DNA from: Dictyostelium discoideum
Taxonomy: Eukaryota
DNA length: 64,000 nucleotides
Assembly (NCBI GenBank): GCA_000004695.1
Contig: CM000151.3
Span: forward strand, 1,344,001-1,408,000
Reading direction: 5' to 3'
The position numbers and the translations under genes are program-made. This document shows, piece after piece, positions 31,029-31,823 of the stretch. The number at the start of each line of letters is the position of its first letter. Position 1 is the first letter of the stretch. The notes below the pieces were generated by a model, which was not told the DNA's origin, searched no databases, and saw only the letters and a list, made by a program, of their open reading frames with translations.

Positions 31029-31823
31029 ATGAAAATTAATGGGAAAACATTTGTGGTGACAGGTGGAGCTTCAGGTTTAGGATTAGAGACAAGTAGACAT
31101 CTTAGATCATTAGGAGCAAATATATTTATAATGGATATGAATGAAGAAAATGGTAGAAAAGTTGTTGAAGAATTAGGTAGTGATAAAACTATGTTTTCAT
31201 CAGTTGATATAACATTGGAGGATTCTGTTAAATTATCATTAGAACATTGTTTAAAGAAATTTAAAGAAATTCATGGTGTTATAAATTGTGCAGGTGTTGC
31301 AGCTGCACAAAGGGTAATTAAAAGGGATGGTCAAGTTCATCCATTGGATTTATTCACTCGTGTAGTTATGGTTAATCTTATTGGTACTTTCAATGTAATT
31401 AGATTAGTTGCTGATATAATACATAACCAAAATCAACCATCATCAAAAGATGGTGGTGAAGAAGAGGAAGAGAAAGGTGTTTTCATTATGACTGCATCAG
31501 TTGCTGCATTCGAGGGTCAGGTAGGCCAATCTGCATATTCTGCAAGCAAAAGTGGTGTTGTTGGTATGACACTACCAATGGCTAGAGAATTTGCTACTTT
31601 AAAAATTAGAATCAATACAATTGCACCTGGAACATTCGAAACACCAATGGTGGAAATGTTACCTCAAGCTGCAATTAAATCAATCAATGAATCAATTCCT
31701 TTTCCATCTAGAATGGGTAAACCAAAAGAATTTGCTTTCTTATGTCAACATTTAATTGAAAATACTTATATAAATGGTGAAGTTATTAGATTAGATGGCG
31801 CACTTCGTTTATCAAAATTGTAA
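31029..31823 (+). CDS. 3-hydroxyacyl-CoA dehydrogenase type 2 (HSD17B10/SCHAD-type short-chain dehydrogenase), 264 aa. It is a single exon with C-terminal -SKL.
   Basis: The glycine-rich NAD site is TGGASGLGLETSRHL. Colinear identity to human HSD17B10 runs through NCAGVAAA, NLIGTFNVIRLVA, TASVAAFEGQVGQSAYSASKSGVVGMTLPMARE, TIAPGTFETP, PFPSRMGKP and NGEVIRLDGALR. The last three residues are SKL. Confidence 0.9.
   Translation: MKINGKTFVVTGGASGLGLETSRHLRSLGANIFIMDMNEENGRKVVEELGSDKTMFSSVDITLEDSVKLSLEHCLKKFKEIHGVINCAGVAAAQRVIKRDGQVHPLDLFTRVVMVNLIGTFNVIRLVADIIHNQNQPSSKDGGEEEEEKGVFIMTASVAAFEGQVGQSAYSASKSGVVGMTLPMAREFATLKIRINTIAPGTFETPMVEMLPQAAIKSINESIPFPSRMGKPKEFAFLCQHLIENTYINGEVIRLDGALRLSKL

Follow-up and report, generated by a model that had tools for sequence, protein, structure and literature searches.

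The analyzed window covers 64,000 nucleotides of the Dictyostelium discoideum genome (contig CM000151.3, forward-strand positions 1,344,001 to 1,408,000) and has an overall G+C content of 23%. The open reading frame under study lies near its center, is flanked by extremely AT-rich intergenic DNA, and encodes a protein identical from the first to the last residue to that of D. discoideum AX4 XP_645166.1 (DDB_G0272128, UniProt Q86JE3). Thus, the public gene model is exactly this open reading frame. The only names attached to the Q86JE3 entry in databases are "hypothetical protein" and "Ketoreductase domain-containing protein". An in-frame stop codon precedes the initiator ATG (Table 1) and the sequence between the two contains no AG acceptor; an N-terminal extension of the exon is therefore excluded. 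DDB_G0272128 is intronless. Two introns interrupt each of the orthologues from D. purpureum and Heterostelium album, and their positions differ; those of H. album follow codons 95 and 170 (locus L008 1501–2459; the D. purpureum gene is at locus L007 1501–2569).

The neighbors of DDB_G0272128 in the 64-kb window are functionally unrelated eukaryotic genes. A D. purpureum ER_lumen_recept gene occupies the same relative position as the D. discoideum KDEL-receptor gene (L007 3548–4069, minus strand), so that local synteny between the two species is conserved. No Pfam match was obtained for the large open reading frames at 17017–20559, 48021–50702 and 57576–59627. The 3' flank (31824–31960) carries approximately seven copies of an A(n)TC unit ("aaaaatc") directly after the stop codon, and repeats of the type "ataccataat" at ~31930–31957.

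Table 1 Features of DDB_G0272128 and of the surrounding window.
Feature	Positions	Strand	Basis or remark
Huntingtin homologue, Htt N-HEAT domain	2647–11471	-	
TRAF/MATH protein	14012–15241	-	
RhoGEF	23731–27168	-	
rps23-like ribosomal protein gene, 3' end	30500–30600	+	
TAA stop in frame with the ATG and two codons before it, part of a (TAA)n run	31023–31025	+	Codon listing
DDB_G0272128, complete CDS	31029–31823	+	Open reading frame list and sequence; 264 residues plus stop; intronless
Dinucleotide-binding motif TGGASGLG, residues 11–18	31059–31082	+	Begins at offset 10
Acidic low-complexity surface loop, residues 134–149, QPSSKDGGEEEEEKG	31428–31475	+	Outside the targeting signal
S157 (31497–31499), Y170 (31536–31538) and K174 (31548–31550) of the SDR catalytic tetrad	31497–31550	+	Sequence read
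DGALRL, residues 256–261, coil linker after the last β-strand (252–255)	31794–31811	+	AF2 and column statistics
Ser262-Lys263-Leu264 (TCA AAA TTG), canonical PTS1 form at the extreme C-terminus	31812–31820	+	Sequence read
TAA stop immediately after the SKL codons	31821–31823	+	Same layout in D. purpureum and Heterostelium album
KDEL-receptor C-terminus, downstream gene	32821–33000	-	
PRP6/PRP39-like HAT-repeat splicing factor	34568–37252	+	

Enzyme family, fold and N-terminus

DDB_G0272128 belongs to the type-II 3-hydroxyacyl-CoA dehydrogenase (HADH; HSD17B10, SDR5C) family, an assignment that is solid. Residues 6–211 match the Pfam adh_short family (PF00106) with an E value of 4.9e-41. The top 16 matches in the PDB are all type-II HADHs, with E values between 1e-57 and 1e-71, and the next subfamily, FabG, reaches only 1e-35. 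The best of these matches are the rat and human HSD17B10 structures (E ~1e-71), for which residues 3–261 of the query align with residues 8–259 of the 261-residue chain; the bacterial type-II HADHs score only slightly lower. The human reference sequence is identical to PDB 1so8 at all 261 positions. Identity between the D. discoideum and human proteins is 48% and the alignment is interrupted by a sole gap, where a surface loop differs in length by seven residues, in agreement with the original prediction that the two enzymes are colinear. A search against NCBIfam returned no model above its cutoff (best score 175.9 bits versus 298).

The motifs, the N-S-Y-K tetrad and the Rossmann fold all identify the protein as a classical SDR. 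An NCAG motif is located at residues 86–89, and the family alignment of 98 sequences is invariant at TGGxSGLG, Asp36, Asn116, Ser157, Tyr170 and Lys174, the last three of which make up the catalytic S...YxxxK region recognized by the original prediction. The position of Asp36 at the end of strand B suggests a preference for NAD, and the protein presumably functions as an NAD-dependent L-3-hydroxyacyl-CoA/2-methyl-3-hydroxybutyryl-CoA dehydrogenase. The AF2 model, built on the 98-sequence alignment, adopts the Rossmann fold with a mean pLDDT of 92.8 (~98 for the strand formed by residues 7–11), and its comparison by Foldseek with the Brucella, rat and human type-II HADHs yields TM scores of 0.88–0.93. 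The acidic loop is modeled with lower values (pLDDT 72–76). It accounts for the only gap relative to human HSD17B10, and its length is variable within the D. discoideum complex itself, where the proteins comprise 258–264 residues. Among the close structural relatives is PDB 7n09, a ketoreductase of Ascaris suum with selectivity for branched substrates. The structure indicates that enzymes of the type-II HADH family can work reductively on 2-methyl-branched acyl-CoAs, which could bear on the role of the Dictyostelium protein.

The Rossmann motif of DDB_G0272128 begins at offset 10, as it does in 277 of 280 bacterial homologues, and at offset 15 in the human enzyme. The N-terminus is thus of bacterial length and has no presequence, and the N-terminal extension of the animal-type mitochondrial HSD17B10 (MRPP2), which amounts to five additional residues, is absent. 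A strong mitochondrial presequence, which the original prediction had considered as evidence against peroxisomal targeting, is accordingly missing, both by the motif offset and by the in-frame TAA upstream. The first 25 residues contain three Lys/Arg and one Asp/Glu in the Dictyostelium protein and two and none, respectively, in the human protein, a net charge of +2 in both. Because the bacterial homologues exhibit the same pattern, this charge reflects the fold. No match to the PTS2 motif was found in DDB_G0272128.

The C-terminal tripeptide and its conservation

As the original prediction stated, the open reading frame terminates in Ser-Lys-Leu (TCA AAA TTG TAA, 31812–31823), an ending that the public model shares and that conforms to the PTS1 pattern [S/A/C]-[K/R/H]-[L/M] directly before a stop codon. 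The last 12 residues (IRLDGALRLSKL) include no acidic residue between positions -1 and -8, and the family-invariant Arg260 occupies PTS1 position -5. Residues 256–264 are coil in the AF2 model, with a pLDDT of ~51 over residues 261–264, and the C-terminal tail of the monomer is predicted to be flexible and free. The amino acid composition encoded in the window gives a chance expectation for a terminal SKL of 7.7e-4 per protein, or ~10 per 12,500 proteins. A lone SKL ending is therefore weak evidence, and it is the conservation of the ending that raises it above chance.

This conservation was evaluated over 328 retrieved family members, the column and tail statistics being based on 297 bacterial homologues. 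A terminal [S/A/P]-K-L occurs in 12 of the 13 eumycetozoan lineages and in none of the 297 bacterial proteins. The five Dictyostelium species (D. discoideum, D. citrinum, D. dimigraforme, D. firmibasis and D. purpureum) end in -SKL; Heterostelium album, Cavenderia fasciculata and five further sequences, some from transcriptomes, end in -AKL; Physarum polycephalum and Acytostelium subglobosum end in -PKL. Across the whole set, a hydrophobic last residue is found in 28 of the 328 proteins, all 28 in the eukaryotic clade, and Lys or Arg is the last residue in 293, typically as A-P-K/R. Signature columns, defined by a residue present in at least 85% of the eumycetozoan sequences and in at most 2% of the 297 bacterial homologues, number only three among the 264 positions: Ile219, Lys263 and Leu264. 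The comparison of amoebozoan C-termini that the original prediction proposed thus reveals a conserved signal, and in silico the identification of the tripeptide as a PTS1 is upheld; such persistence among relatives is what a genuine PTS1 protein would be expected to display.

The codons underlying the ending differ between species. D. discoideum uses TCA AAA TTG TAA, D. purpureum TCA AAA TTA TAA and H. album GCA AAA CTC TAA, so that the terminal Leu is retained through three codons and the Ser/Ala position through TCA and GCA. Such a pattern is what purifying selection acting on the peptide would give. The eumycetozoan proteins that keep [S/A/P]-K-L share 55–67% overall identity. The tail that follows the R-L-D-G motif is seven residues long in 294 of the 297 bacterial and 26 of the 28 eukaryotic sequences. 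Because the lengths are equal, the signal arose by substitution (A-P-K/R to S/A-K-L); an origin of the PTS1 as an extension past the bacterial C-terminus was considered and rejected on the same basis.

A spliced 3' end that replaces the SKL, an event that would undermine the original prediction, finds no support. The last exon of the D. purpureum and of the H. album gene spans 85 codons or more and continues without interruption to S/A-K-L and the stop codon, and -AKL or -PKL terminates the orthologues known from transcripts (Trinity assemblies and the Physarum transcriptome). The string GTAA, formed where the TTG codon meets the TAA stop, was considered as a splice donor and rejected, as the open reading frame equals the public model and stops at the end of the fold, and the transcript-derived orthologues end likewise.

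Tieghemostelium lacteum is the sole exception among the dictyostelids. Its protein ends in RLPLLPSKY (tca aaa tat taa, confirmed in the DNA at L009 1757–1783): four residues are inserted, and the final Leu is replaced by Tyr. The signal may truly have been lost or weakened in this species, or the assembly may differ. A sister group of eukaryotic type-II HADHs ends in SSL, SAL, SSM, SAM, AAM or AML, with no basic residue at position -2. The contigs of this group (loci L001–L006) carry neighboring genes of TM9SF nonaspanin, polyQ and Kelch-like types, and the sequences are therefore taken to be eukaryotic.

Relationship to animal HSD17B10

The original prediction called the protein an HSD17B10 orthologue, of which the family membership stands but the orthology does not receive support, as the human sequence falls outside the amoebozoan clade in the NJ tree. 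The mean identity of human HSD17B10 is 58% to the bacterial set and 50% to the amoebozoan proteins, and that of the Dictyostelium protein is 53% to the bacteria and 48% to human. In 200 NJ bootstrap replicates, the amoebozoan proteins and four eukaryotic sister-group sequences form a clade in 77%; the human sequence joins the amoebozoan clade in 0–1% of the replicates and groups with bacterial sequences. The tree is a crude one, obtained by a simple distance method with one animal sequence and with bacteria sampled for their similarity to Dictyostelium. Vertical orthology to animal HSD17B10 is thus not demonstrated, and the sequence comparison provides weak evidence against it rather than a refutation, and does not speak for separate origins. 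It appears distinctly unlikely that the enzyme of the slime moulds and the sister group has been peroxisomal since early amoebozoan or still earlier eukaryotic evolution; if it has, then either the mitochondrial location in animals would represent a later retargeting that enabled the enzyme to serve as MRPP2, a subunit of the protein-only mitochondrial RNase P, or the genes of animals and amoebozoans would have been acquired independently from bacteria and their products sent to different organelles.

Subcellular location and comparison with known systems

DDB_G0272128 is probably located mainly or wholly in peroxisomes, as judged from its C-terminal sequence and that of its relatives. Synthesis in the cytosol would yield a protein that lacks a presequence, and PEX5 would recognize its free C-terminal Ser-Lys-Leu and bring it into the peroxisomal matrix. 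In this compartment the enzyme may oxidize L-3-hydroxyacyl-CoAs with short or branched chains, or reduce the matching 3-ketoacyl-CoAs, beside MfeA, a peroxisomal enzyme already known. The signal would have been created by replacement of the last three residues, from the bacterial-type A-P-K/R to S/A-K-L, and selection would have kept it across the slime moulds. Candidate metabolic roles that could be envisaged are short- or branched-chain β-oxidation, the processing of isoleucine-type intermediates, and acetoacetyl-CoA chemistry tied to the peroxisomal isoprenoid enzymes of D. discoideum. The import machinery itself is documented in this organism: GFP-SKL and an mRFP fusion ending in SKL label D. 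discoideum peroxisomes, and the PTS1 and PTS2 pathways both operate (PMC3465988).

Three other explanations of the -SKL ending were weighed. Chance, with no biological meaning attached to the tripeptide, would be compatible with the roughly ten such endings expected from composition alone, but not with the recurrence of [S/A/P]-K-L in all but one of the eumycetozoan lineages at their level of divergence and through synonymous codon changes, nor with its complete absence from the bacterial homologues; on these comparisons a chance origin appears effectively refuted. It is also very unlikely that the tripeptide goes unused, whether because the tail is buried within, or takes part in, the tetramer that enzymes of this family form or because the context is too weak, and that the enzyme is cytosolic or reaches mitochondria by another route. 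C-terminal segments can contribute to subunit contacts in SDR tetramers, the tail reaches only as far past R-L-D-G as it does in bacteria, and the -SKY of T. lacteum could be read in the same direction. Nonetheless, a clade-specific Lys and Leu that bacteria never have are hard to explain without selection for the signal, the tail in the AF2 model is low-confidence coil, and PEX5 binds newly made monomers and imports oligomers. Moreover, a second SDR of Dictyostelium relies on a C-terminal SKL: with an N-terminal tag it is peroxisomal, and with a blocked C-terminus it stays in the cytosol (PMC13256971).

Dual localization, in which the SKL would direct the enzyme to peroxisomes and a weak signal, internal or N-terminal and not cleaved, would direct it to mitochondria, is considered unlikely. 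Targeting of the human enzyme depends on an amphiphilic N-terminal signal that is not cleaved and that coincides in part with the first strand and helix of the fold (PMC10743717), and the net charge of the Dictyostelium N-terminus resembles that of the human protein. However, the bacterial homologues share this charge pattern, the five additional residues of the animal enzyme are missing from an N-terminus of exactly bacterial length, and the clade-specific changes cluster at the C-terminus rather than at the N-terminus. A search of the available literature found no paper that names DDB_G0272128 or Q86JE3, or that describes a PTS1 on an HSD17B10-type enzyme. The main texts of the Dictyostelium mitochondrial compendium (Freitas et al. 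2022, PMC9118663), a list that peroxisomal MfeA contaminates, and of a 2026 spatial-proteomics preprint (10.64898/2026.09.28.755154) make no mention of DDB_G0272128, and papers on the peroxisomes and mitochondria of Acanthamoeba, Pelomyxa and free-living amoebae do not treat the HSD17B10-type enzyme.

If the peroxisomal assignment is correct, short- or branched-chain acyl-CoA chemistry (for example isoleucine-type or acetoacetyl-CoA reactions) that is mitochondrial in mammals would take place in Dictyostelium peroxisomes, and the enzyme would provide a clean case of retargeting through two or three C-terminal substitutions in a very conserved protein. Retargeting of β-oxidation enzymes between peroxisomes and mitochondria is already a familiar theme, and PTS1-bearing SDRs are also known. 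A "hypothetical protein" would gain a testable function and an address, of practical use for annotation and for mapping of the Dictyostelium peroxisomal proteome.

The human and rat HSD17B10 (SDR5C1, type-II HADH, SCHAD/MHBD, MRPP2) share with DDB_G0272128 the fold, the length, colinearity from strand A to the C-terminus, the cofactor motif and the catalytic tetrad, with TM scores of ~0.9. Unlike the amoebozoan enzyme, which ends in -RLSKL, the animal enzyme ends in -RMQP without a PTS1 and includes its five additional N-terminal residues in the mitochondrial signal. It also moonlights in mitochondrial RNase P, a function that there is no reason to expect of the Dictyostelium enzyme. The bacterial type-II HADHs (Brucella, PDB 4o5o and 4pn3; Burkholderia, PDB 4xgn; M. 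tuberculosis Rv1144) are the best structural matches and resemble DDB_G0272128 in sequence (50–57% identity), in N-terminal offset and in tail length, but they end in A-P-K/R, G-A-K and similar tripeptides and never in a PTS1.

Mammalian peroxisomal SDRs that bear a PTS1 include DHRS4 (-SRL) and PECR and DECR2 (both -AKL). MfeA is a member of the multifunctional-enzyme-2/HSD17B4 family, is D-specific and contains an SCP2 domain. The Dictyostelium ADHAPR "candidate 2" (DDB0302651, -SKL) has in common with DDB_G0272128 the SDR fold and a short tail ending in a PTS1, for which a free C-terminus is needed (PMC13256971); it differs from DDB_G0272128, as do DHRS4, PECR and DECR2, in belonging to other SDR subfamilies and in acting on other substrates. 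MfeA (MFE1), cited in the literature as the known D. discoideum peroxisomal hydroxyacyl-CoA dehydrogenase, carries out the same formal step of β-oxidation but derives from a different SDR lineage, such that the single-domain, L-specific type-II HADH encoded by DDB_G0272128 would, if peroxisomal, join the D-specific MfeA in the Dictyostelium peroxisome.
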